Translations under genes and position numbers: made by a program | Shown here: piece by piece, positions 1 to 13,300 of the stretch | How the letters are laid out: every line of letters starts with the position of its first letter | Numbering within the stretch: position 1 is the stretch's first letter | The notes under the pieces: model-generated | Databases searched by the model: none | Told to the model about the DNA's origin: nothing | What the model saw: only the letters and a program-made list of their open reading frames with translations | Virus record (IMG/VR): IMGVR_UViG_2681813205_000017 | Span: 1-13,300 of that record | DNA length: 13,300 nt | DNA from: a virus | Lineage: Duplodnaviria > Heunggongvirae > Uroviricota > Caudoviricetes | Direction: 5' to 3' (one strand)

Positions 1-162
1 ATTACTGCTTCAGGTTGGTGTATTGCTTGCATCTTTCCCTTTTCATTCATAAAGATAGATCAAACAACAAAACCACCACCACCCCCCTGAAAAGGCTCAT
101 AAATAGCGAAAATCCGCGAGGTCTCCGCCCCGTAACAGGTCCATATGCCGGAAAGGACCCGC

Positions 163-184
163 AAAAAAGCCGGATTTCTCCGGC
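163..184 (-). terminator. Intrinsic terminator ending the capsid operon (GCCGGA-GAAA-UCCGGC stem-loop plus U6 on the - strand)
   Basis: 6-bp GC-rich stem with a GNRA tetraloop followed by six U on the - strand RNA, 7 bp downstream of the stop of the 191..604 gene. Confidence 0.7.
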
Positions 185-190
185 CTTGTC

Positions 191-604
191 TCAGATGGTT
201 TTCAGTATGCGATCGATGTCGCCGTCATCGCCCGGGTTTCTGCCATCGTATGCCATGCCAGCTGATACGGCTTGTGGGCTGTGCATGTCCATAAAGTTTT
301 CAAAGGCTGCGGTAAGCTCTGGTGCAACCTTCGGGCGTTCCTGCTCTATGGTCATGTTCAGGATGTTTTTAGCCGTATCAACATCAATACAAGGCACGTT
401 TGCCATTGCACGTAACAGCGGCTGATAGTCGTCAGATTCATGAAGCGCCATAATCGCATCAGCGCGCGGCTTGTCCTTCTCTTCCAGGCTGTTAAGTTGA
501 TATACGGCCTCGTAGGTTGATAAACCTCTGTCAGCCATTGCCCGCGCTTCGGCTTTAAATTTACTCGCCAGCGGTAGCGTCATGATACTTTCATTCGTTG
601 CCAT
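191..604 (-). CDS. Hypothetical protein, last gene of the capsid operon (137 aa)
   Basis: ATG at 604 preceded by a GGGGG Shine-Dalgarno. Starts 13 nt after the stop of the decoration-like gene and is followed by an intrinsic terminator. The + strand ORF 15..425 overlapping it lacks such context. Confidence 0.6.
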   Translation of the reverse strand: MATNESIMTLPLASKFKAEARAMADRGLSTYEAVYQLNSLEEKDKPRADAIMALHESDDYQPLLRAMANVPCIDVDTAKNILNMTIEQERPKVAPELTAAFENFMDMHSPQAVSAGMAYDGRNPGDDGDIDRILKTI

Positions 605-616
605 CGTTCCCCCTGC

Positions 617-952
617 TTATCGCGCCAGCGGCTGAACGGATACGCCAGAACCCGCAAAGGCGGCGCATTTTTTCGCGTCGGTGTCGGCGCTCTCAGGCCA
701 GTTAACGGCGGCAATATTGAATATCCCCGTCTTGTAGCACTGTGCTGATTTCTGCGTCGACGTGTCCACGGGGTACGAGGTCAGATAAACAGCCTTGCCA
801 GATTCCTGACCATCCCACGGCTTAAACTCGCCATTTTCCGCCAGCATCAGCGGGGTAAATTCCTGAATAACGCCAGCATCAGCAGCAAAATGTACCAGCG
901 TCGTGGATACCTGCTGACTACCTGCAAATAACTCAATGTATGGAGTGTCCAT
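617..952 (-). CDS. Head decoration protein, lambda gpD-like (111 aa)
   Basis: Translation shares recalled gpD motifs (TPLML, WDG, YK-G-F, WPE, KK-AFAG-VSV) and similar length. GGGGGG Shine-Dalgarno 5 nt upstream of the ATG. Immediately downstream of the capsid gene. Confidence 0.7.
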   Translation of the reverse strand: MDTPYIELFAGSQQVSTTLVHFAADAGVIQEFTPLMLAENGEFKPWDGQESGKAVYLTSYPVDTSTQKSAQCYKTGIFNIAAVNWPESADTDAKKCAAFAGSGVSVQPLAR

Positions 953-964
953 AGAATCCCCCCG

Positions 965-2020
965 TTAACCAATTTTGACGATAACAAATTTGCGAATATC
1001 TGCCGGTACCGGCTGCGGTGCGCTGTGCGTCTGCACGTACTCAATCGCCGGATCGCCGTCCTCAATCCAGTTTTTCGGGTAAAACATGTTTTGCGTTGCG
1101 CCCGTTCTGACCGCTTCCTGATCCATAATCGCACCATAGGCCACCAGCCCTTTATTGTTGGTGTTACCCAGGACCAGCAAATCAGGCTCAAGGAAATATT
1201 TTTCGGTGCCGTCGCTGTCAGTGTATTTGCCGGAATAGACGACAAGGGCAATATCGCCCAGATAGCCTTTAAAGCTCACCACTTCACCCAGGTTTTTACA
1301 GGCCAGTTCTGCGGCGGATTCTGAACCACGGGAAAGGTCGTACAGTTCGCGGAATTTTTTAAAGCTGCGTAACGTGCGCCATACTTCAGCGCCCATAATC
1401 ATGACGTTTGCGGGGCAATTGCCCTGATCAGCATAAAGCTCGATGTCATAGATTGGATCGTGTGTTTCTTTATCCAGCTCAGACCATTTTTTACCGTCAG
1501 CCTGTTCTATGATATTGCTTTCCGGGATCTTCCAGTCGATTTCATAGCGTTCTATGCCTTCGCCCTCAATGAGGTTTTTTCCGGTCGTTACCGCATTCAC
1601 CGCCAGCCATTCCACGCGTGCCTTAATGGCGTTTATCTGGCGGCGCATGTTGCCAGTAATCAGGCGCATACGGCGATAGGTAGGATCGTTAAGCTGTGCC
1701 GGATCTTCTCCAGCCATGCGCATGATGGTTTTTGTTGGATCGATTTCGTGTTTGGGTTTCATGTAGCCTGGTTTAATCGTGCTGGTTTCGTACCCTTTAT
1801 CGCGCTGGACCTGACTACCCACCATAGGCGAACAGAACGCTGACATCGTAACCTCTTCAATGTCCAGGGTGTCCAGAATGATGTTCTGGGTGTTGAAGGT
1901 CGCCACGTTCGGGAAAAACAGCGTGGTAAACAGCGGACTGAATTTAAATTCTGCAATATCCCCGCGATTCAGGTACGCGAAAAGCTGGTTAGTGTTAAGT
2001 GCCGTTGCTTTGCCTGCCAT
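965..2020 (-). CDS. Major capsid protein, lambda gpE family (351 aa)
   Basis: Translation aligns along its length with recalled lambda gpE (FKF-PLF, PGYMKPKHE, DPTYRRMR, LRSFK, RGSES, VVYSGKY, LVLGNT, YPKNW, GDPA, SAP). GGAGGTG Shine-Dalgarno; start overlaps the upstream stop (TAATG). Confidence 0.85.
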   Translation of the reverse strand: MAGKATALNTNQLFAYLNRGDIAEFKFSPLFTTLFFPNVATFNTQNIILDTLDIEEVTMSAFCSPMVGSQVQRDKGYETSTIKPGYMKPKHEIDPTKTIMRMAGEDPAQLNDPTYRRMRLITGNMRRQINAIKARVEWLAVNAVTTGKNLIEGEGIERYEIDWKIPESNIIEQADGKKWSELDKETHDPIYDIELYADQGNCPANVMIMGAEVWRTLRSFKKFRELYDLSRGSESAAELACKNLGEVVSFKGYLGDIALVVYSGKYTDSDGTEKYFLEPDLLVLGNTNNKGLVAYGAIMDQEAVRTGATQNMFYPKNWIEDGDPAIEYVQTHSAPQPVPADIRKFVIVKIG

Positions 2021-2226
2021 TATTCACCTCCATGCGTCTGATTCATGCCCAGCGCCGCGCGTAAATAGGCGCGGACCTGCCAGCCTGTTGACGGCTCAAC
2101 CATCGCCAGCGGATCAAGTCCTGCCGCAATGCCTGCTTTTACGTTCTGCTGGTGGCGTTCCTTGAGCGCCTTCACGATGTCGGGGCTTATGTACACCGAA
2201 ACACCGCCTTTTTTCTCTTCAGCCAT
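2020..2226 (-). CDS. Hypothetical small protein, first gene of the capsid operon (68 aa)
   Basis: ATG at 2226 with a purine-rich ribosome-binding site. Stop overlaps the capsid start codon (translational coupling). Lies ~55 nt downstream of a near-consensus sigma70 promoter. Confidence 0.6.
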   Translation of the reverse strand: MAEEKKGGVSVYISPDIVKALKERHQQNVKAGIAAGLDPLAMVEPSTGWQVRAYLRAALGMNQTHGGE

Positions 2227-2282
2227 AGTAAGAAATTCCTCTTCGACTTAAAAAATCATAACTGGATGTTTATCCAGTCCTG

Positions 2283-2310
2283 ATTATAATCAGAATTGCA
2301 TTTTATGCAA
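2283..2310 (-). promoter_or_regulatory. Sigma70-type promoter of the capsid operon (-35 TTGCAT, 16-bp spacer, -10 TATAAT on the - strand)
   Basis: On the - strand, TTGCAT (complement of 2305..2310) and TATAAT (complement of 2283..2288) with a 16-bp spacer. Both hexamers sit inside perfect palindromes (TTGCATTTTATGCAA and CTGATTATAATCAG). Confidence 0.55.
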
Positions 2311-2390
2311 TGATATTGAGTTATGTTGCAAATTATGAAATGATTATCCCGATCACGAACGCCAGTGCATCCAAAAACCTCATATGCAAA

Positions 2391-2429
2391 AGCCCGATAA
2401 GAACCCTCTGACCTTATCGGGCTTTTTTT
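2391..2429 (+). terminator. Strong stem-loop with T7 tract (AGCCCGATAAG ... CTTATCGGGCT TTTTTTT); + strand intrinsic terminator geometry, possibly bidirectional
   Basis: 11-bp stem followed by seven T on the + strand. On the - strand the same hairpin is followed by UUUUG. No + strand gene upstream, so it may act mainly as a second - strand terminator or insulator. Confidence 0.5.
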
Positions 2430-2435
2430 GGGCGC

Positions 2436-2457
2436 AAAAAAGCCGGATTGCTCCGGC
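2436..2457 (-). terminator. Intrinsic terminator after the 74-aa gene (GCCGGA-GCAA-UCCGGC plus U6)
   Basis: Same module as 163..184 and 2799..2821 but with a GCAA tetraloop; lies 20 bp downstream of the stop at 2478. Confidence 0.7.
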
Positions 2458-2477
2458 TATGTGTGCTGTGTGCTGGC

Positions 2478-2702
2478 TCAGTCTCTGATCTCTTTCAGAA
2501 ATTCTATCAATGCATCTATCTGTTCAGGATTTACCGCCAGCATTTCACCGGACAGAGCACATCTCACAAAACCATGCTGATCCTTTTCAATCAGTGCGCC
2601 CGTCTCCAGGAATGCGCGGTAATCATTGATGCTCATCGTCTCCATGTTGTCAGCATGGTATTTATCACGCTGTTTTAATATCTCATCAAATTTCATCGGC
2701 AT
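2478..2702 (-). CDS. Hypothetical protein (74 aa), monocistronic moron-like cassette
   Basis: ATG at 2702 preceded by AGAGGA. The gene is bracketed by intrinsic terminators on both sides (2799..2821 upstream, 2436..2457 downstream). Confidence 0.6.
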   Translation of the reverse strand: MPMKFDEILKQRDKYHADNMETMSINDYRAFLETGALIEKDQHGFVRCALSGEMLAVNPEQIDALIEFLKEIRD

Positions 2703-2798
2703 TGTTTTTTTCCTCTGTTGTGTCTGTTTGTTTCAGATAGTAACTATGCCTGACCGTGACGAAAACCCGGTAATGCGCCATACCGTTTCAACTGGTGC

Positions 2799-2821
2799 AA
2801 AAAAAGCCGGATTTCTCCGGC
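2799..2821 (-). terminator. Intrinsic terminator after the PerC-like gene (GCCGGA-GAAA-UCCGGC plus U7)
   Basis: GNRA-tetraloop hairpin plus U-tract on the - strand, 8 bp downstream of the stop at 2829. Confidence 0.7.
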
Positions 2822-2828
2822 TGTTTGA

Positions 2829-3104
2829 TTAGCTGTCCTGGTAATTGCGCCATATTTCATCACCAGCACCATCTATACCCATTTCGGCATAAGTGCGATC
2901 GACTGCCTTTTTCAGGTCTCCGAAATTATCCGGCGGCTCCGGTGCCCTCTGTGCCTTCCTTGAACATTCCAGCCGTCGCATCGTGATGTGATGCCGTTCC
3001 TTGTCTGTCTCCACCAGCTGCATGACTTCACCCCATCGCGCCGCCGCCCTCCGGTAAAAGCCTTTCGCCTCTAGTTCCTCCGCTATGCGGTCATGTACCA
3101 TCGT
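2829..3104 (-). CDS. PerC-family transcriptional regulator (91 aa)
   Basis: N-terminal AEELEAKGFYRRAAARWGEVM matches the recalled PerC/Pch signature (LE-G-WRRAA-RW). The likely start is the ATG at 3104 (GAGGGGG Shine-Dalgarno, 8 nt after the SSB stop) rather than the ORF-track start at 3221, which would overlap ssb by 110 nt. Confidence 0.65.
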   Translation of the reverse strand, partial: TMVHDRIAEELEAKGFYRRAAARWGEVMQLVETDKERHHITMRRLECSRKAQRAPEPPDNFGDLKKAVDRTYAEMGIDGAGDEIWRNYQDS

Positions 3105-3111
3105 CACCCCC

Positions 3112-3522
3112 TCAGAACGAAATATCATCACCGTAAGGGTCATCGCCTCCCGCTGGTGGCTGATTACCCTGTGTGCCTGTGGTTTTGCGTCTGTTCCCGC
3201 CAGGACGTGCCGCACGGGCACTGATTACGCTGTCTGCAATAACCTGATACCCCTGCCGTGTTTCCCCGTTCTGTCCGGTCCACTGGCTTACCTGCATCGT
3301 GCCGGATACGCTGGCAACATCGCCTTTTTGATGTTTAGCCAGGAAATCGGCCTGTTTGCCAAATGCGATAACCGATAACCATAACGTCGCCTGTCCGTCA
3401 TGTGCCTGGCTGCATGGCAACGATACCGCCATACGCGCCAGAGTCATCGGTGTGCCCTTGCTGGTCTGTTTTACCTGCGGGTCGTCCACCAGCCGCCCGT
3501 AAGCGGCTATCTGTGCCGTCAT
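3112..3522 (-). CDS. ssb: Single-stranded DNA-binding protein (136 aa)
   Basis: OB-fold core resembles E. coli SSB (W-x-x-V-x-x-FGK ... KG ... W), followed by a Gly/Gln/Pro-rich linker and an acidic C-terminal tail DDPYGDDISF (E. coli SSB ends DDDIPF). GGAGAGGTG Shine-Dalgarno; ATGA overlap with the upstream gene. Confidence 0.85.
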   Translation of the reverse strand: MTAQIAAYGRLVDDPQVKQTSKGTPMTLARMAVSLPCSQAHDGQATLWLSVIAFGKQADFLAKHQKGDVASVSGTMQVSQWTGQNGETRQGYQVIADSVISARAARPGGNRRKTTGTQGNQPPAGGDDPYGDDISF

Positions 3523-3770
3523 AATTCCACCTCTCCGGTTTTAACGTTGATGGTTGTTACCTGTTCCGCTTCGGCAATCTCCCGTTCTGTCAGCGTGGCA
3601 AAGTTTGCCGCCGCCGTGGTCATGAATGCGCTTATCAGGTCGGGATGTTCCTTCGCGTATCCTTCCCGCGTGTGGCGGTCTATCGTTCTGATTGCCACCT
3701 TTAAGGTGTGCTCAGTCATGTCTAACGCTTTATATTTTGGCTCTGTTCTGTCTCTGCGTTTTTGGGTCAT
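3519..3770 (-). CDS. Hypothetical protein (83 aa from the ATG at 3770; alternative start at 3800 gives 93 aa)
   Basis: ORF translationally coupled to ssb (ATGA overlap). The ATG at 3770 has a GAGAGG ribosome-binding site and avoids overlap with the iterons. Confidence 0.5.
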   Translation of the reverse strand: MTQKRRDRTEPKYKALDMTEHTLKVAIRTIDRHTREGYAKEHPDLISAFMTTAAANFATLTEREIAEAEQVTTINVKTGEVEL

Positions 3771-3782
3771 TTCTCGCAACCT

Positions 3783-3973
3783 CTCACTTTTTCGCCTCAC
3801 TTTTTCAAGCGTCTCACTTCGTCGCAGCTGGGATTTTCGGTTTTTCTATGTGTGTGTTTCATAAGTATTTTTTTACCCCTCACTTTTGAGGATGTATACA
3901 GGTCGAAAAGTGAGGGAGAGCAGGCTAATTTTGGCCCTCTTTCTATCCACCTCGCTTTTGCTCCTCACTTTTA
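3783..3973. repeat. Putative replication origin: six CTCACTT(TT) iterons flanking an AT-rich stretch
   Basis: CTCACTT copies at 3783, 3796, 3813 and 3879, an inverted copy at 3906..3915 (AAAAGTGAGG) and another at 3963, plus a degenerate copy near 3950. AT-rich segment 3836..3876. Lies directly 3' of the helicase gene. Confidence 0.55.
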
Positions 3974-5371
3974 TAGCGGCGCTACATCATCCCCATCGAT
4001 ACGAATAACCCCATCTTTTTCCAGCTTGTACAGCCAGCGCCGGAAGTTTTTCATTTCATACCCCAGCTTTTTCATGTCATCACGTAACAGCGGGATCGTG
4101 CACTTGTCGCCGTTCTGTGTGCGTGAACGGATGCACCCCCATAGCGCGGTATGGTTTTCCGTCTTGTTCCCTGCCTCCTCGATGCGCTCCAGTTCAACAG
4201 GAGGGCGCGGATCATCCACCACCACCAGCGACGTGATTAATTCACCGTCAGCGTCGGTAAAAAGCTCCACCACGCGTAAGTCATATGCGGCTTCTTTGAG
4301 TTCCTCCGCGTCCTTCATTTTGGTGCATGAGATAACCAGCGCTTCGCTTCCTGCGTCCTCCCTGCGTATCCGGTATTCAGCATCCAGCGAAGCACGAAAT
4401 GCACTGGAACCGCGCGCGCCTTTCGTCTCATCCTTGCCGGAATGGTGAACCACCAGCACCGTGGCCCCTGTGCGTCGTTTCAGTTCGTCACAACCACGGA
4501 TAAACGCCCCCATATCACGGGAATCATTTTCATCATTCCCACCAAAGCAACGCGCCAGCGTATCCAGAATAATCATGCGTACAGGTTTACCCGTTTCCCG
4601 CTCCACCTGACGGGCAGCGATAACCATTTCATCAACATCAAGCGGGGCAGCCGGAAAGATGGGGCGGTTTACCAGATACAGATTTTTCACCTGCTCATCG
4701 TGCACAACCTCCCAGGCTTTTACACGACGCGGAACACCTATACCGCCTTCACCAACCACATAGAGAACCGCACCATGTGCAACCCTGCGGCCTCCCCACT
4801 GGCGACCAGTGGCAACATGGCACGCCCACGATCCGGCAAGGAATGATTTATAGGACCCGCTAGCCCCGTATATGCTGCATAGCGATACCGCCGGAATAAT
4901 CCCCTTAACCACGTAATCCAGTTGCGTGTCGTATCCGGTAGATCCAACGCTCATCGGTAGCGTGGTTTTTCGCTGGTGGTTTTTTTCTTCCGCCGGCTCT
5001 TTCCCGCGCACCCGTTCCAGGTATTCGCGCCAGTTCTCCCGCATATGGCTGTGCATCCCTTCGGGGTAATAATTCGCATCAGTTACACCCGCCGCCGCCA
5101 GCTTGTGCGCAATGGCATTAATATTTGATGGCCTGATGTGGCCTGCCTTGTACAGCCGGACACAATAGCGCCCCTCGTCGATGATTCTCAGGTCTGCCAG
5201 TTCATCCAGTTGATCATCAGCCAGCACAACGGGAGGCACATTATCGCCAGCCAGTCGCCCGTCCTGTTCCTGCCACTGTTTCGCATGTGCCCAGGCATCA
5301 CTACCCGCAAAAATAATGACTTCGGTCATCTTGTCGTAAGGCTGTTTTTTTAAGTTCGGTGCGCTTTTCAT
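3971..5371 (-). CDS. Replication initiator / replicative helicase, RecA-fold ATPase (RepA / AAA_25-like), 466 aa
   Basis: Walker A-like GASGSYKS, Walker B-like MIILDTLARCF, and VLVVHHSGKD typical of RepA/DnaB-like helicases of satellites and plasmids. ATGA overlap with the upstream gene; iterons immediately downstream. Confidence 0.75.
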   Translation of the reverse strand: MKSAPNLKKQPYDKMTEVIIFAGSDAWAHAKQWQEQDGRLAGDNVPPVVLADDQLDELADLRIIDEGRYCVRLYKAGHIRPSNINAIAHKLAAAGVTDANYYPEGMHSHMRENWREYLERVRGKEPAEEKNHQRKTTLPMSVGSTGYDTQLDYVVKGIIPAVSLCSIYGASGSYKSFLAGSWACHVATGRQWGGRRVAHGAVLYVVGEGGIGVPRRVKAWEVVHDEQVKNLYLVNRPIFPAAPLDVDEMVIAARQVERETGKPVRMIILDTLARCFGGNDENDSRDMGAFIRGCDELKRRTGATVLVVHHSGKDETKGARGSSAFRASLDAEYRIRREDAGSEALVISCTKMKDAEELKEAAYDLRVVELFTDADGELITSLVVVDDPRPPVELERIEEAGNKTENHTALWGCIRSRTQNGDKCTIPLLRDDMKKLGYEMKNFRRWLYKLEKDGVIRIDGDDVAPL

Positions 5372-5667
5372 TTCTTGCCCCTGAATCCGTTAATCATGGT
5401 TTTCAGCTTCTGGATGTTTGCCCGTGCCCTGGCGTTGCTGGTGGGCACGTTATGCGGCGCGGTCTGTACCAGAGAAAAATCACGCCGGAACTGATAAACA
5501 GGCATCACGCAATCATATTCGTAACCTTCACGGCGGTAGGTTACGCGCCGTTCTTCCACGCCCTTAATCATTACCGTGCCGCCGTACTGGTCGCGGTAAA
5601 TATCACCGCGCGTAAATTTAGGGTGAGTGTTGCCACTGGCAGTTAAGCCAGAATATTTAAGTTTCAT
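5368..5667 (-). CDS. Hypothetical protein (99 aa), translationally coupled to the helicase gene
   Basis: ATG at 5667; stop overlaps the helicase start (ATGA). Basic, Tyr/Arg-rich; no recognisable motif. Confidence 0.55.
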   Translation of the reverse strand: MKLKYSGLTASGNTHPKFTRGDIYRDQYGGTVMIKGVEERRVTYRREGYEYDCVMPVYQFRRDFSLVQTAPHNVPTSNARARANIQKLKTMINGFRGKK

Positions 5668-5672
5668 TATTT

Positions 5673-5906
5673 TTATTCTCCGGTGTGCTGTTCTTTATAT
5701 CTGTCGTGCAATAGATCTATTTCTTGCAGTTCCATTATTACAGGATCAAGAAGCGTTATTAATGCCGTGGCAATTCTTGATTTTTGTTTGTCGCGTTCAT
5801 TGTCGCCAAGTGTTTCAAGCCATATGCGCAATATTTCCAGCATGTTTTCACTGTGAGAAAGTGCAAGAAATGCGCGGTCTATTGTTTGGTGGTAAATATC
5901 ACGCAT
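5673..5906 (-). CDS. Hypothetical protein (77 aa)
   Basis: ATG at 5906 overlaps the stop of the upstream gene (ATGCGTGA). Part of the same coupled gene chain. Confidence 0.55.
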   Translation of the reverse strand: MRDIYHQTIDRAFLALSHSENMLEILRIWLETLGDNERDKQKSRIATALITLLDPVIMELQEIDLLHDRYKEQHTGE

Positions 5907-6357
5907 GGCTTACATCCTCAGGAAATTTTCTTCTATAACGCGCCTCTGCCACATATTCCGCATAATCGGCGGCGATATTCAGTACATCAAGCCCCGTTGA
6001 TTTATATTCTCTCGTGGAAAGTAAGAAAAAAGCCGCTCTAATAAGTTCTGGCATTGACGAAAGCGCATCAGCCGCATCATCAGGAACGCCGGAAAATTCC
6101 TGTTTCAGGGAATTAAAACGATCATCACGCATAACCCCCCCCCCATTTTCACAATCAGCAACAAGAATATTTTTAGCGTCATTCAGCGACCGCGTTGCGG
6201 TGTATCGGATACATTCCAGGGCGAATAGTGTGTATTCTTCCCTTTCTTCCCTTTCTTCCTTTTGTGCAAGCTCTGCTGTGCATTCAATATCAATAAGCGC
6301 GTGCATCAGCGTAGTGAGTGCGGCGGCGGCTGCGTCCGGTGTGGTTTTATTGCACAT
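5899..6357 (-). CDS. Hypothetical acidic protein (153 aa from the ATG at 6357) containing an in-frame G10 tract
   Basis: ATG at 6357 has a GGAGGGG Shine-Dalgarno 3 nt upstream. The ORF-track start at 6411 has no ribosome-binding site and would overlap the upstream gene by 65 nt. Contains an EEREEREE repeat and the Gly-Gly-Gly encoded by the C10 run at 6135..6144. Confidence 0.55.
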   Translation of the reverse strand: MCNKTTPDAAAAALTTLMHALIDIECTAELAQKEEREEREEYTLFALECIRYTATRSLNDAKNILVADCENGGGVMRDDRFNSLKQEFSGVPDDAADALSSMPELIRAAFFLLSTREYKSTGLDVLNIAADYAEYVAEARYRRKFPEDVSHA

Positions 6358-6577
6358 GTACCCCTCCGCATTTTTTTTCGTTAGAAATAAGCGTTCTTCT
6401 TTCCTGTTCATCGATCAGGAATACGCAGACCTCACCGCTAAGGCGTTTAAGTAAGCCGATGATTGCCCCTGATTCGCTGTCGGTCATCATGCCTGGGTAA
6501 TCCTCTGCCAGTGCGCAAATAACTTCGATTTGGTGGGCGCGTTCTACTGCCTGTTGTAGTGTGATTTCCTGGCTCAT
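6347..6577 (-). CDS. Hypothetical protein (76 aa)
   Basis: ATG at 6577 with a GGGGG ribosome-binding site; ATGA overlap with the candidate upstream ORF. Contains an A8 tract on the coding strand. Confidence 0.55.
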   Translation of the reverse strand: MSQEITLQQAVERAHQIEVICALAEDYPGMMTDSESGAIIGLLKRLSGEVCVFLIDEQERRTLISNEKKCGGVHVQ

Positions 6578-6774
6578 AAGCCTACCCCCTGACGAATACG
6601 GGCAGCGAATACCATCACGCAGCCAGCCGGGGATTGCAGGCGTGCTTCCTGTTCGCTGGTGGCCTCAATGGTAATCACGCGCGGTTGTGCAGTGCTCAGG
6701 GCGATAAAACGCCAAATGTATTTATTCAGGTTGTGCGAGTCCCGCCCTTGCGGGTGTGTGGTATGATTTCTCAT
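6574..6774 (-). CDS. Candidate small ORF (66 aa), putative first gene of the early operon
   Basis: Not listed separately in the ORF track; it is the C-terminal end of the spurious 381-aa ORF. ATG at 6774 with a GAGG ribosome-binding site 6 nt upstream; stop overlaps the next start (ATGA); ~100 nt downstream of the predicted - strand promoter. Confidence 0.4.
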   Translation of the reverse strand: MRNHTTHPQGRDSHNLNKYIWRFIALSTAQPRVITIEATSEQEARLQSPAGCVMVFAARIRQGVGL

Positions 6775-6872
6775 AGCTACCTCGATACTCTCGTTATCGT
6801 TGGTGGTTAGAAGCCCCGTTACTGCTCCTACAGTGCGGGGTTTCGTCGTTTCTGCACCTTGCATTAACAAGG

Positions 6873-6950
6873 TGTAAGTAACTTTATTTATAGGTGGCTT
6901 ACATGTCAATGCTTTTATGTAAGACTTTTTATGTGTATATTGTCTTACAC
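6873..6950. promoter_or_regulatory. Divergent switch region: four TGTAAG / CTTACA operator half-sites overlapping a - strand TTGACA-N17-TAAAGT promoter
   Basis: Half-sites at 6873 (TGTAAG), 6898 (CTTACA), 6919 (TGTAAG) and 6945 (CTTACA), alternating in orientation. On the - strand a perfect -35 TTGACA (complement of 6904..6909) and a -10 TAAAGT (complement of 6881..6886) with a 17-bp spacer. Confidence 0.5.
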
Positions 6951-6970
6951 TTTCATTGAGAGGATTACAG

Positions 6971-7276
6971 ATGGCTACAGGTTCAAAAAACGCAAAATCA
7001 CAATCACTGACAGCTCGGATCCCGCATGATGTTATTGAAGGCATGGAATCCGTAAAACTGGACGGTGAAAGCAACGCCGGATTCATAGTAACCGCCATGC
7101 GCGGTGAAATCGCCCGCCGCCAGGCAGAAGGAAGCGGAGAAAACCTCCTGATTTCTTCGCTCAATGCACTGGCGCAGGTGGAAAAACTCGGAATCAAAGC
7201 CGCCGAGGAGATCGGGCAGCTCGTCACTGTCGCACGTGAAGAACTCCAGCGCCGCAAGACTAAAGAACCAGAGTAA
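6971..7276 (+). CDS. Putative transcriptional regulator, candidate repressor of the early operon (101 aa)
   Basis: ATG at 6971 with a GAGAGGA Shine-Dalgarno. Divergent from the - strand operon and immediately downstream of the operator cluster. Function is inferred from position only. Confidence 0.55.
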   Translation: MATGSKNAKSQSLTARIPHDVIEGMESVKLDGESNAGFIVTAMRGEIARRQAEGSGENLLISSLNALAQVEKLGIKAAEEIGQLVTVAREELQRRKTKEPE

Positions 7277-7318
7277 TCACCATCAGCGCCGTGGTGTAAG
7301 GTATTACGGCGCATTGCT

Positions 7319-7507
7319 ATGCAGGACAACACAATGACCGATAAAGAATTGACCAAAACATTATCACCGGCACGGAAAAGACGGCGCAGAAAGATAGAGC
7401 ATGAATCAGAAAGATTCGCGCCATGTGCTTTTGCCCTTGAGCAATTCCTTAAAGAGTACAGGGAAAAGCGCTCATTGCAGGTATGGCAACGAACTGAACC
7501 AGACTGA
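7319..7507 (+). CDS. Small basic protein (62 aa; alternative start at 7334)
   Basis: ORF following the regulator on the same strand, with a Lys/Arg-rich stretch (ARKRRRRK). Followed by an intrinsic terminator at 7603..7630. Confidence 0.4.
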   Translation: MQDNTMTDKELTKTLSPARKRRRRKIEHESERFAPCAFALEQFLKEYREKRSLQVWQRTEPD

Positions 7508-7602
7508 TAGCATTGCCCACCAGCCTGATAGCGACTATCATTGCCGTTCTTATGTTTGGGATCACACACACAAACGGCGCAGCGGGTTATCTGTTCAGAA
7601 AG

Positions 7603-7630
7603 GCGGCTCCATTTCGGGGCCGCTTTTTTT
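7603..7630 (+). terminator. Intrinsic terminator for the + strand regulator genes
   Basis: GCGGCUCC ... GGGGCCGC stem (one G-U wobble) with a 5-nt loop, followed by seven T. Confidence 0.6.
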
Positions 7631-7776
7631 ATGTCTGAAAAACCCCAATTTTGTTGTTTTTCAGTTTCACCAGGGCGAACGAATCCCCGCCCACGTTCTG
7701 GCGTATATTCAATCTTCATGGTTATAGCTCTGTGTTCAGATGATTGATGTGTGGCGGCTGCGTGCCGCCAGCGTGA

Positions 7777-7965
7777 TTAATGAACTGCCTTGCAGCTATC
7801 CTTCCAGGCCAGAACCTCGGATAAAGACCAGCCAACGGAACGACCGCCAAGTTTACGACGTGATGGGAATTGTCCGGCCTTTTCCAGGCGGTAGCGACAC
7901 GTACGGCTAAGGCCGGTTAGTTTTTCGCATTCTTTTTCACGTATAAACCGATCAGTGCTTAACAC
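7777..7965 (-). CDS. alpA: AlpA-family phage regulator / excisionase-like protein (62 aa from GTG at 7965)
   Basis: CEKLTGLSRTCRYRLEKAGQFP ... GGRSVGWSLSEVLAWK matches the AlpA helix-turn-helix signature. The ORF track starts at a TTG at 8046, but a GTG at 7965 has an AGGGGGG Shine-Dalgarno and gives the typical AlpA length. Confidence 0.75.
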   Translation of the reverse strand: MLSTDRFIREKECEKLTGLSRTCRYRLEKAGQFPSRRKLGGRSVGWSLSEVLAWKDSCKAVH

Positions 7966-8238
7966 TATTGCCCCCCTTTCGTTTCTTAAAGAGTCATCAG
8001 GTGTCTTATTGTGTCGTATTGTTCCCGCTAGAGTGATGAATGGCAAATATTGAGGATGTATGATTTACAGAAAATGAAACAGTAAGAATAAAATCTTTTA
8101 AATTCATGTTAATACAAAGGCATAAAATATTGTTTCATGCCTTTTTTCTCACGCGTTAAAGCGTTATTCGCTAATGTATAAAAAAACAGTCACACAAATA
8201 AAATCAGTCACTTATAAACCTGTGTACTTTTTCGCCTC

Positions 8239-8288
8239 TTGTTCGTGGTTGTTCCACGTTGTTTCACATTGTTCGCCGTTGTATCTGT
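8239..8288. repeat. Five tandem 10-bp units each beginning TTGT (helically phased) between int and alpA
   Basis: TTGTTCGTGG TTGTTCCACG TTGTTTCACA TTGTTCGCCG TTGTATCTGT, an exact 10-bp period. Confidence 0.6.
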
Positions 8289-8330
8289 GTGCTTATCCAG
8301 TATGCGCATACTGAAAAAACACGAAAAAAA

Positions 8331-9548
8331 TTATTTTCTTCTGGCTGCTGGTAGTGCGGTTACGTTTTCATGTGTTCCCGCCAGTATCCCTAACCGCTCC
8401 ATCCACATATCCAGCGCATTGCGTTTAGCATCCAGATAACGGGAATGATTATAAACTCGCTGCATTCCTGGCATCTGGTGGCCTGTAAGCTGCTCCACGA
8501 CATGCGGATCAACGCCTAAATCGTTCAGCATGGTTGTAAAGGTGCGCCGGATGTCATGCAGTGACCAGTGAGGATGATTAAGCCTCCTGTGCGCTAATCT
8601 TCCATACTGCGATACGCTGGCCTCCTGTTTCACTTCCCCCAGCAATAAGCCCGTGTGCCTGTTCTGCTCCACCAGCTGCGTGACGAACGGCAGTATTGCT
8701 TCCGGTATGGGCCGGAATATTGCCACCTTCGTTTTGCTGTGTTCTTTCGGCACGGTCCAGAGCATTTCGGTAAAATCCCACTCGCTGATCTCCGATAACC
8801 TCAGTTCTACCGTCCGGCATCCGAACACAATCAGGAGGCGGATTAACGCGATGTAGTAGGGGGAGAATATTTTTTTGTCCAGTGCCTGCAATAATTCGCC
8901 CAGTTCTTTGGTGCTTAAGACACGCTCGCTTATATCCGGTTTTTTCCCAACGTCCGCCACACTCATATCATCAAGAACGTTGCTGATTGCATAGCGCCGC
9001 CTCCGGCAGAACTTAAGCGCCTGTTTGCACGTCTGTAGCAAGAATCCGGCAGTAACAGGCGTTCGCTTTGCCACCTGGTCAAAACAGGCCAGCCAGTGCC
9101 GTAGCTCGCATTTATCCAGCGGCATAGCACCAATGTGCTGTATTACGTGATTATTAAGTCGCCTTTTCAGGGCGATATAATCCACGCGGTTTTCCTTTAC
9201 GTAATACTCAAGCCAGTAGGTGAGCGCATCGCCAACCGTTACGGGCTTTAACGCTTCCTGTACGGTGTAATTCATCTCATGACGTGGATTTTTCCCCTCA
9301 GCCAGCCATGTGCGACACTGTGCGGCTTTTTCCCTGGCTGCTTTCAGGCTCAGATCAGGATAACTTCCCAGCTTAATGCGTTCGGGTCGTGTCTCCCTTC
9401 CCGTTCCGGCCCTGTATGTGAAATACCAGGTCAATTTCCCTGATGTTAAATATTTCACGCTCAGGTTTCCGCCATCACTATAAAACGTGTTTTTCTCCGC
9501 TGGCTTACCATGAAGTTTCCTTAGCAAGGTATCGCTCAGTTTGTTCAT
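8331..9548 (-). CDS. int: Tyrosine integrase, P4-like family
   Basis: N-terminal arm-binding-type motif (KPAEKNTFYSDGGNLSVKYL), C-terminal catalytic region with HDIRRT and VYNHSRY (R, H-x-x-R, Y). Start is probably the ATG at 9548 (MNKLSD...); the ORF track uses a GTG at 9560. It is the outermost island gene next to the junction. Confidence 0.85.
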   Translation of the reverse strand: MNKLSDTLLRKLHGKPAEKNTFYSDGGNLSVKYLTSGKLTWYFTYRAGTGRETRPERIKLGSYPDLSLKAAREKAAQCRTWLAEGKNPRHEMNYTVQEALKPVTVGDALTYWLEYYVKENRVDYIALKRRLNNHVIQHIGAMPLDKCELRHWLACFDQVAKRTPVTAGFLLQTCKQALKFCRRRRYAISNVLDDMSVADVGKKPDISERVLSTKELGELLQALDKKIFSPYYIALIRLLIVFGCRTVELRLSEISEWDFTEMLWTVPKEHSKTKVAIFRPIPEAILPFVTQLVEQNRHTGLLLGEVKQEASVSQYGRLAHRRLNHPHWSLHDIRRTFTTMLNDLGVDPHVVEQLTGHQMPGMQRVYNHSRYLDAKRNALDMWMERLGILAGTHENVTALPAARRK

Positions 9549-9584
9549 TGCTCTGCTCACGTTTTACCCCCTCTTTACGAAAAA

Positions 9585-9650
9585 GTGACTACACCAGTGA
9601 CTACACCGATCGTTGCACAAAGGGCTACAACGTGAAACAAGCTGGAACAA
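9585..9650. promoter_or_regulatory. int upstream region with a 12-bp tandem repeat (GTGACTACACC x2) and four 10-bp phased units ending ACAA; candidate arm-type or regulator binding sites
   Basis: GTGACTACACCA GTGACTACACCG at 9585..9608. CGTTGCACAA AGGGCTACAA CGTGAAACAA GCTGGAACAA at 9611..9650, which is the reverse complement motif of the array at 8239..8288. Confidence 0.45.
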
Positions 9651-9757
9651 GGAAAATCACAAATCTGTTGATAATCAAAAACATAATGCACAGCCTGAAA
9701 CATTATGAAACAGCAAAAAACACTAAATGATAAAATGCTGTTATTCTTAACCCGCTG

Positions 9758-10642
9758 GTGCAACACATGGTCCGCTGGCGAGTGCCGCGTGTACTGGCGG
9801 TGTCGATTTTGATGACCATCATCGTGATGGCGATGGTGTTGCTATTAGCTTATCTGGGTTCCGCGCTCAACGAGTTGACGCGGACGTTACCGCAATATCG
9901 CAACTCTATTATGACGCCGCTGCAAGCTCTTGAGCCGTTGTTGCAACGCGTAGGGATTGACGTCTCAGTTGACCAGCTGGCGCATTACATTGATCCGAAC
10001 GCGGCGATGACGTTGCTCACCAACTTATTGACGCAGTTATCTAATGCCATGTCATCAATATTTTTATTGCTGCTGACGGTGCTGTTTATGCTGCTCGAAG
10101 TGCCACAATTGCCCGGAAAATTTCAGCAAATGATGGCGCGTCCGGTTGAAGGGATGGCGGCGATTCAACGTGCAATTGACAGTGTTTCTCATTATCTGGT
10201 GCTGAAAACAGCCATCAGCATCATCACCGGCCTGGTCGCCTGGGCGATGCTCGCCGCACTCGATGTTCGCTTCGCTTTTGTCTGGGGATTGCTGGCCTTT
10301 GCGCTTAATTACATCCCTAATATTGGTTCAGTTCTCGCGGCAATCCCCCCTATCGCTCAGGTACTGGTGTTTAATGGCTTCTACGAAGCGTTGCTGGTGC
10401 TGGCGGGATATCTGCTGATTAATCTGGTCTTCGGCAATATTCTGGAGCCGCGCATCATGGGACGTGGGCTGGGGCTTTCCACATTGGTGGTATTTTTGTC
10501 GTTGATTTTTTGGGGATGGTTGTTAGGACCGGTGGGTATGCTGCTTTCCGTGCCGTTAACAATTATTGTCAAAATTGCGCTTGAACAAACAGCGGGAGGT
10601 CAAAGCATCGCCGTTCTGTTAAGCGATCTCAATAAAGAGTGA
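9758..10642 (+). CDS. tqsA: AI-2 exporter TqsA (YdgG), 5'-truncated by the island insertion (294 codons retained)
   Basis: Translation matches recalled E. coli TqsA from its internal [15 protein letters not shown] segment to the C-terminal SDLNKE. An in-frame TAA at 9731..9733 lies directly upstream and there is no native N-terminus or ribosome-binding site. The ORF-track start is an internal GTG. Confidence 0.8.
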
Positions 10643-10662
10643 CGGCCTCCGCAGAGGCCGTC
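10641..10662. terminator. Shared stem-loop between convergent tqsA and pntB (GACGGCCTC-cgca-GAGGCCGTC)
   Basis: 9-bp perfect GC-rich inverted repeat lying exactly between the two stop codons. Confidence 0.55.
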
Positions 10663-10666
10663 AGGG

Positions 10667-12058
<1,392 letters not shown>

Positions 12059-12065
12059 TTACCCC

Positions 12066-13300
<1,235 letters not shown>

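Follow-up and report, generated by a model that had tools for sequence, protein, structure and literature searches.

A putative RepA-type initiator-helicase of a Gram-negative phage-inducible chromosomal island, with a portable N-terminal domain that is probably not a primase

The closest described system to the replication protein (Rep) considered here is EcCICFT073, the prototype Gram-negative phage-inducible chromosomal island (PICI), whose Pri-Rep (WP_000761835.1, 584 aa) is a genetically tested replication protein (PMC6092414). Rep is a 466-aa protein encoded in a 13,300-nt stretch of viral DNA (positions 1 to 13,300 of IMG/VR record IMGVR_UViG_2681813205_000017, hereafter the window). 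The two proteins share an N-terminal domain (N-domain; 62% identity over residues 1-122, E = 1e-47), and the two elements share the island type, the gene order and an origin with two iteron sets directly downstream of rep. However, no similarity is found past about residue 125, and the motor and C-terminus are non-homologous. Pri-Rep carries a superfamily 3 (SF3) motor, composed of D5_N, DUF5906 and Pox_D5, and is accompanied by CTGTCTACC iterons, whereas Rep carries an AAA_25 motor and is accompanied by AAAGTGAGR iterons.

Several better-known replication proteins resemble Rep in part. The alpha protein of satellite P4 also combines a module in the primase position, a helicase and a C-terminal origin-binding domain in one polypeptide, and its origin also consists of short repeats. 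Unlike Rep, it possesses Zn_Ribbon_Prim and Toprim_3 domains with EGYATA and DRD motifs, followed by an SF3 motor (D5_N, DUF5906, Pox_D5), and thus fuses a primase to its helicase, as was correctly pointed out in an initial annotation of the window made from the sequence alone. The Reps of SaPIs (Rep1 and PriRep5) act as both initiator and helicase and load themselves; their C-terminal winged helix recognises 6-12 iterons that directly follow rep around an AT-rich centre, the organization that we propose for Rep, but their motors belong to AAA+ SF3/MCM groups and not to the RecA fold (PMC9371898). As well, SaPI primases lie upstream of Rep or are fused to it, and these proteins belong to Gram-positive elements and have no sequence similarity to Rep. 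RSF1010 RepA is a hexameric helicase of the same AAA_25 motor family, with weak sequence similarity (E = 0.005); it is a stand-alone motor of 279 aa, whereas Rep adds the N-domain and a winged-helix-like domain and has Tyr for Gly in its P-loop. IncQ plasmids use separate proteins to recognise the origin (RepC) and to prime (RepB'). Finally, T7 gp4 and human Twinkle show no detectable sequence similarity to Rep, their helicase belonging to the DnaB branch and that of Rep to the RepA/AAA_25 branch; besides a zinc-binding domain, T7 gp4 has a full RNA-polymerase domain, and only a core of ~110 residues could correspond to the N-domain.

Rep consists of three modules, which are the N-domain (residues 1-125), a motor starting at residue 148 and a C-terminal domain (residues 401-466). 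In our best explanation, which we hold with a probability of about two in three (0.68), the 466-aa open reading frame (ORF) encodes the Rep of an EcCICFT073/EcCI042-type PICI, which unites origin recognition and unwinding in one polypeptide, and its N-domain is a non-catalytic, flexibly tethered accessory module. The gene rep is real and common. Many complete E. coli chromosomes contain a gene of 100% identical DNA, annotated as 'helicase RepA family protein'; the product of rep is identical to RefSeq WP_000833618.1 and is covered over its full length by phrog_2850 (E = 5.7e-267). At least 80% of rep is present in 558 of the 5426 complete E. coli genomes, and rep-like DNA, whole or some part, in 1396 of them. 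That it is the Rep of a PICI is already known, since it is among the 'allelic variants' noted in 2018 (PMC6092414), and its motor family is known as well.

The N-domain was modelled alone from a 42-sequence alignment and gave a confident fold (mean pLDDT 92.4, pTM 0.85). It is composed of strand 18-22, helix 26-40, strand 48-50, short helix 52-56, strand 70-75, helix 81-93, strand 98-102 and helix 115-124, with conserved positions A4, P5, E17, G23, A26, W27, W33, P47, L55, G77, A92, E112, R120 and R122 and a conserved N-terminal peptide, xKxAPNhKxQ. The initial annotation had placed a 466-aa protein at 3971-5371, which stands with the addition of its strand (minus), and had left ~140 N-terminal residues unassigned; the absence of a family match is borne out, while the region is better described as a domain of ~125 residues followed by a 22-residue linker.

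As the initial annotation had stated, no recognisable primase domain was found. Residues 1-150 of Rep matched no Pfam family even at E <= 10, with all Toprim, Prim-Pol and PriCT models included, and the outcome was equally negative for eight divergent relatives. PDB sequences gave no known domain for this region in a single-sequence search and chance matches only in a profile search, and comparisons by hhalign with P4 alpha, T7 gp4 and a P4 Toprim alignment all stayed below 1% probability (0.3% for the P4 Toprim alignment, of 16 sequences). There is no conserved Cys or His in the N-domain, and a zinc-binding template-recognition domain is absent, the N-domain starting at residue 1. At the site of the Toprim Glu after strand 1, the N-domain sequences have Ala, Val or Ile and then G23, and they lack a conserved DxD. 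Acidic residues reach 75% or more of the N-domain sequences at two positions only, E17 and E112, neither of which is a Toprim position. Since the N-domain has no zinc ribbon, Toprim Glu or DxD, primer synthesis by it is very unlikely.

The only match of Rep to a 'DNA primase' was by association, and its N-terminal region did not score as any known primase or origin-binding domain. This match, phrog_864 (E = 1.6e-13), is the EcCICFT073 Pri-Rep family itself. EcCICFT073 Pri-Rep matches columns 84-627 of phrog_864, while P4 alpha matches columns 206-625 only, namely the helicase half, and leaves columns 84-196, those of the N-domain, unmatched. The primase part of P4 maps to columns 28-311 of phrog_1139, where the N-domain of EcCICFT073 takes up columns 169-311. 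P4 alpha shares its helicase half with EcCICFT073 Pri-Rep, and therefore the PICI N-domain takes the place of the zinc-ribbon and Toprim primase of P4. The label of phrog_864 was rejected as evidence for a primase because P4 alpha matches its helicase half only; the 'primase' label of these Reps would have been inherited from the P4-family helicase module, without catalytic basis. Published work has already cautioned, in general terms, against the wrong annotation of 'primase C-term' helicases as primases (PMC10061031).

If the 'DNA primase' or 'Pri-Rep' label were taken literally, the N-domain would be an active, previously unknown minimal primase and Rep a true primase-helicase, which we consider very improbable. 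The N-domain does lie where P4 alpha, T7 gp4 and other helicases of mobile genetic elements carry their primase, complete 16-kb satellites have no other primase gene, and rep and ori alone replicate in E. coli (PMC6092414); however, host DnaG is available and would be sufficient for these plasmid data. Candidate catalytic residues are conserved acidic or polar positions, E17, D104 (20 of 32 sequences), E112 and N/D113, and some Pasteurellaceae members have 'DEAGQ' after strand 4, which we take to resemble the Toprim DxDxAG motif. Against these stand the lack of a zinc-binding motif, of conserved Cys or His, of the Toprim Glu or DxD and of any Pfam primase model at E <= 10, as well as the size of the folded part, which is only about 110 residues. 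To our knowledge, the known primases need a scaffold for template and nucleoside triphosphate binding at least twice the size of the N-domain. A minimal primase of this kind would be Toprim-derived with other residues (e.g., E17, D104, E112 and N/D113), would be the smallest known and attachable to any helicase motor, and would allow satellites of Enterobacterales and Pasteurellaceae to prime their own replication.

The fold of the N-domain was also compared with known and predicted structures. Foldseek against PDB returned nothing significant (best E = 0.13), and the sole significant match in BFVD was A0A6J5LID1 (E = 3.7e-4, probability 1.0, TM 0.55-0.64), a 112-aa uncharacterised protein of an uncultured caudovirus, which may be a stand-alone version of the N-domain. 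The BFVD matches below it were weak ones to Toprim, and unrelated alpha/beta folds (PTS IIA, HGPRT and SAVED) scored 5.5-5.8 against the N-domain; the Toprim likeness of the modelled fold is suggestive but weak. The odds are, in our view, about even that the N-domain is a degenerate relic of Toprim, in the manner of the primase-like N-terminal region found in human Twinkle. The latter was reported to contribute to single-stranded DNA (ssDNA) binding and helicase activity (PMC2241861). In Rep, the N-domain would handle ssDNA or serve as a docking site for a conserved partner from the replication machinery of the host.

The N-domain is a narrow and portable module, confined to satellites of Enterobacterales and Pasteurellaceae. 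A profile search retrieved 138 cluster representatives among 1.84 billion proteins, the named sources being Escherichia, Shigella, Salmonella, Enterobacter, Klebsiella, Serratia, Arsenophonus and Tenebrionibacter in Enterobacterales and Mannheimia, Avibacterium, Aggregatibacter, Haemophilus, Glaesserella and Spirabiliibacterium in Pasteurellaceae. The single named source outside these groups, a partial protein from a contig of only 364 nt under the label Xanthomonas citri, is probably a contaminant. Among 50,697 phage records, the N-domain was found three times, once in a 16.5-kb capsid-forming PICI-like element, and a further carrier in the plasmid collection is a 16-kb capsid-forming PICI-like element of Klebsiella; a genome-wide search with a closer alignment of the N-domain returned three loci only. 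The N-domain always forms the very beginning of the protein, and behind it stands a helicase module of one of three unrelated types, which are AAA_25, DUF927, or D5_N together with DUF5906 and Pox_D5. Its presence on three unrelated motors and its limitation to two related host orders make a conserved partner outside the motor, or a general handling of ssDNA, likelier than a contact with the motor.

In a specific version of the accessory role, the N-domain would be an adaptor that docks on a conserved protein of the host replisome, for example on the C-terminal domain of DnaG, the single-stranded DNA-binding protein (SSB) or a subunit of the DNA polymerase III (Pol III) holoenzyme, and by which any motor would be plugged into host priming and elongation. 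We regard this version as possible but tentative. Since one and the same N-domain goes with three motors of unrelated structure, the motor itself is probably not its partner, and the limit to Enterobacterales and Pasteurellaceae would fit co-adaptation to a host protein. The conserved xKxAPNhKxQ peptide and the lack of a universally conserved neighbour gene, which could have been an island-encoded partner, point in the same direction, and the isoelectric point (pI) of the N-domain, about 6, speaks against a mainly DNA-binding role in the window allele (6.2). However, the pI ranges from 4.8 to 9.1 across the family, and no known clamp-binding or SSB-tip-binding motif was recognised in the N-domain.

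The sole Pfam match in Rep is AAA_25 (PF13481), over residues 148-315 (E = 2.4e-43, 148.5 bits against a cutoff of 27), and the RSF1010 RepA helicase (1g8y) is its only solved relative by sequence (E = 0.005). Residues K175, E208, D270 and H310 of Rep align to K43, E77, D140 and H179 of RSF1010 RepA, so that the Walker A Lys, the catalytic-type Glu, the Walker B Asp and the sensor His are all kept, while NCBIfam gave weak RadA matches on the core and nothing else. By these alignments, the Rep motor is a member of the RepA/AAA_25 RecA-fold helicase family, and it would be expected to possess ATPase and helicase activity. The RecA-fold core with Walker A and B motifs reported in the initial annotation is confirmed, with the qualification that the Walker A motif is deviant, having Tyr in place of the near-universal Gly that precedes the Lys and thus departing from GK[ST]. 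The motif G[AP]SGSYKS is invariant in 120 of the 120 homologues listed, and the Tyr is therefore a family trait rather than a lesion.

The deviant Walker A, the weak RadA-type matches in NCBIfam and one homologue once named 'regulatory prophage protein' would also fit a RecA/KaiC-like ATPase that acts in regulation, interference or defence and is no replicative helicase. However, Rep fills the rep slot of an otherwise near-identical EcCICFT073-type island, an iteron origin of textbook type follows directly after rep, the N-domain is common to the genetically proven EcCICFT073 Pri-Rep, and the match to AAA_25/RepA is strong, with the aligned catalytic-type residues kept; we regard such a non-helicase role as extremely improbable.

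A probable origin is located directly downstream of rep. Six matches to AAGTGAGR were observed, against 0.56 expected in the whole window, and none of 200 shuffles reached six; all six lie no more than 190 nt past the rep stop, in two groups around an AT-rich stretch. Published E. coli PICI origins have a matching layout, with two iteron sets and an AT-rich region directly downstream of rep (PMC6092414), and SaPI origins match it too, their iterons being recognised by Rep through its C-terminal winged helix (PMC9371898). In the AlphaFold (AF2) model, residues 401-466 form three helices and a two-stranded wing (pLDDT 82-90). This domain is basic (pI 9.07), and its sole match among PDB sequences was to a winged helix-turn-helix regulator, which was non-significant (E = 1.4).

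The iteron word shifts jointly with the C-terminal domain across alleles. The window allele (3782-3970) combines AAAGTGAGR with EMKNFRRWLYK in the recognition-helix region, a 62%-identical allele (L015, 2602-2815) combines AAAGTGGG with DTKHLKRWLAK, and an Enterobacter allele (L014, 2614-3075) combines AAATGCGC-type iterons with GRKGFTRWLEK, while in the SF3-type EcCICFT073 allele (L009, 9990-10290), with CTGTCTACC, the C-terminal region is not homologous. The N-domains are still 56-62% identical. Judging from the layout and this covariation of domain and iteron, residues 401-466 are the probable origin reader. The covariation also suggests matched rep-ori cassettes, which could avoid cross-talk between co-resident islands.

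It could be supposed that the N-domain is itself a determinant of origin binding or DNA melting, as initiators often have N-terminal DNA-binding domains and R120 and R122 are conserved at its end. This is very doubtful, because N-domains of 56-62% identity go with the unrelated iterons AAAGTGAGR, CTGTCTACC and the AAATGCGC type, and therefore the N-domain is not the iteron reader; moreover, the domain that co-varies with the iterons is the basic C-terminal one, whereas the N-domain is acidic to neutral (pI 6.2).

Host DnaG probably supplies the primers. The initial annotation had considered priming by the host, by a helper phage or by one of the adjacent small proteins. The neighbouring small proteins in the window (74-170 aa) belong to no Pfam family or only to DUF4222, SSB and PerC, and thus to no primase family; a neighbour as primase or fixed partner was rejected for this reason and because DUF4222 is not a constant neighbour, which leaves the adjacent-protein suggestion without support. 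The complete 16-kb capsid-forming PICIs with the N-domain also contain no other primase candidate. Rep and ori of EcCICFT073 maintain a plasmid in DH5alpha without helper phage (PMC6092414), and this result, together with the lack of a primase in the neighbours and in complete PICIs, favours the host.

In the mechanism that we propose, the winged-helix-like domain would bind the AAAGTGAGR iterons flanking the AT-rich stretch 3' of rep, the AT-rich core would melt after iteron binding, and the RepA/AAA_25 motor would form a ring, load itself at the melted origin and unwind with ATP. After unwinding, host DnaG and Pol III would do the synthesis, and the SSB encoded by the island might assist priming. 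An acidic C-terminal tip of the E. coli SSB type could recruit host factors, and by analogy the tip of the island SSB may do so.

Several points weigh against the explanation preferred here, namely a PICI initiator-helicase with a non-catalytic N-domain. The published rep and ori belonged to a Rep with the same N-domain, and their replication is therefore also compatible with priming by the N-domain. The register in which the N-domain is aligned to Toprim is provisional. The P-loop Tyr is unusual for an active NTPase. The full-length AF2 model of Rep is mediocre (mean pLDDT 65.7), with the motor poor at residues 148-172 and 312-401 because the alignment is shallow, and the winged-helix call draws on predicted secondary structure and on covariation in only four or five alleles.

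Gram-negative PICIs are widespread, and their replication gene is routinely named 'pri', 'pri-rep' or 'DNA primase'. The present analysis corrects this recurrent annotation. In the literature searched, we found no description of the N-domain and nothing on PICIs together with DnaG. The same literature also did not describe that the 'primase' label of these proteins lacks a catalytic basis, that a satellite-specific N-domain goes with three motor classes, or that an initiator-helicase can have, in place of an SF3 motor, a RepA motor of the RecA fold whose P-loop is deviant. This N-domain represents a domain family not yet in Pfam, and priming by satellites and their coupling to the host replisome become a concrete question that can be tested by mutation. 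As well, the swap of rep-ori with matched iteron and winged-helix specificity shows how satellites could avoid replicon cross-talk. The initial annotation had missed the C-terminal winged-helix-like domain, the iteron origin downstream and the portable N-domain common to proteins annotated as 'DNA primase'.

Table 1. Coordinates of rep, its domains, the probable origin and neighbouring genes in the window.
Feature	Position	Strand	Basis or remark
rep, 466-aa initiator-helicase	3971..5371	minus	ATG-to-stop ORF and translation
N-domain, residues 1-125, beta-alpha-beta-alpha-beta-alpha-beta-alpha	4997..5371	minus	module of Gram-negative PICI-type satellite Reps; no Pfam family; weakly Toprim-like fold
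Linker, residues 126-147 (PAEEKNHQRKTTLPMSVGSTGY)	4931..4996	minus	pLDDT 47-57, low-confidence; variable; contains A7 run
RepA/AAA_25 RecA-fold motor, residues 148 to about 395	4187..4930	minus	Pfam AAA_25 and 1g8y alignment; C-terminal limit inferred
Deviant Walker A GASGSYKS, residues 169-176	4844..4867	minus	translation
Walker B MIILD, residues 266-270 (D270)	4562..4576	minus	translation; aligned to RepA D140
Winged-helix-like domain, residues 401-466, probable iteron reader	3974..4171	minus	AF2 model, covariation
Probable origin	3782..3970		six AAGTGAGR iterons and a degenerate copy flanking an AT-rich stretch, directly 3' of rep stop
AAGTGAGR iterons, rep sense	3782-3789, 3795-3802, 3812-3819, 3878-3885, 3963-3970	rep sense	repeat scan
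AAGTGAGR iteron, inverted	3908-3915	inverted vs rep	repeat scan
Degenerate iteron copy AAAGCGAGG	about 3950-3958		repeat families
AT-rich stretch of origin	about 3840-3899		GC 0.30-0.33
Tyrosine integrase	8331-9560	minus	gene order
AlpA	7777-8046	minus	gene order
DUF4222 gene, upstream of rep	5368..5667	minus	Pfam DUF4222, E = 1.6e-24; stop overlaps rep start (ATGA)
Island SSB, acidic C-terminal tip DDPYGDDISF	3112..3522	minus	Pfam SSB, E = 9.3e-17
PerC-family regulator	2829-3221	minus	Pfam
Lambda-E-like major capsid protein	965-2020	minus	as in EcCICFT073
Decoration protein	617-952	minus	as in EcCICFT073

All window genes from the integrase to the decoration protein run in one direction (Table 1), with several small genes between AlpA and DUF4222 and a protein of 83-93 aa between rep and SSB. 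The order int-alpA-...-DUF4222-rep-ori-SSB-PerC-capsid is that of Gram-negative PICIs and is shared by EcCICFT073. Compared as a whole, the window comes closest to the island that adjoins pntAB in E. coli 042 (97.4% identity over 92%). DUF4222 and SSB are 94% and 98% identical to their EcCICFT073 copies, the SSB tip being DDISF in the window vs DDIPF in CFT073, while the rep-ori region between them is largely non-homologous. Since the flanking genes are near-identical but rep differs, the rep-ori cassette has been exchanged by modular replacement. Among the loci examined, DUF4222 lies upstream of N-domain genes only in Escherichia, Salmonella and Enterobacter and not in Klebsiella-type or Mannheimia-like loci, and the N-domain has no universally conserved neighbour. 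Relatives of PerC control virulence genes in pathogenic E. coli.

A 381-aa ORF upstream (6574-7719, minus) is probably mechanical, as RefSeq has only an Icd-like gene of ~68 aa at its 3' end in an identical island (L001). A gene that looks real is present on the opposite strand (6956-7276, plus; phrog_6522).

The linker of Rep contains an A7 run in the form of an in-frame A_AAA_AAC heptamer (about 4950-4985, minus). A shift to the +1 frame would lead to a TGA that shares bases with the Met140 start codon (ATGA), and draft assemblies include separate ORFs of 139 aa and 327 aa for rep. A programmed frameshift or natural split at this run was rejected, since among complete genomes of at least 99% identity none had A6 and 359 had A7, and since the example of 327 aa comes from the end of a contig; the split ORFs are probably assembly or sequencing artefacts. 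As well, many database entries of the rep family are 'partial' fragments broken inside or just after the N-domain, one of which was checked and lies at a contig end, and rep-like DNA occurs in up to six places per genome in complete E. coli. The partial entries would fit N-domain DNA being a repeat common to several islands per genome, which breaks short-read assemblies. A 270-aa 'Puccinia striiformis' protein (P0356) falls in a 90%-identity cluster of Serratia DUF927 Reps and is almost certainly bacterial contamination in a fungal assembly. Finally, a few E. coli proteins (P0014, P0015, P0078 and P0081) join the N-domain to the C-terminal half of the island SSB. We rejected them as a fourth architecture and read them as rare deletion derivatives, because they look as if the helicase and the origin had been deleted together with the start of ssb, so that the replicon would be dead.

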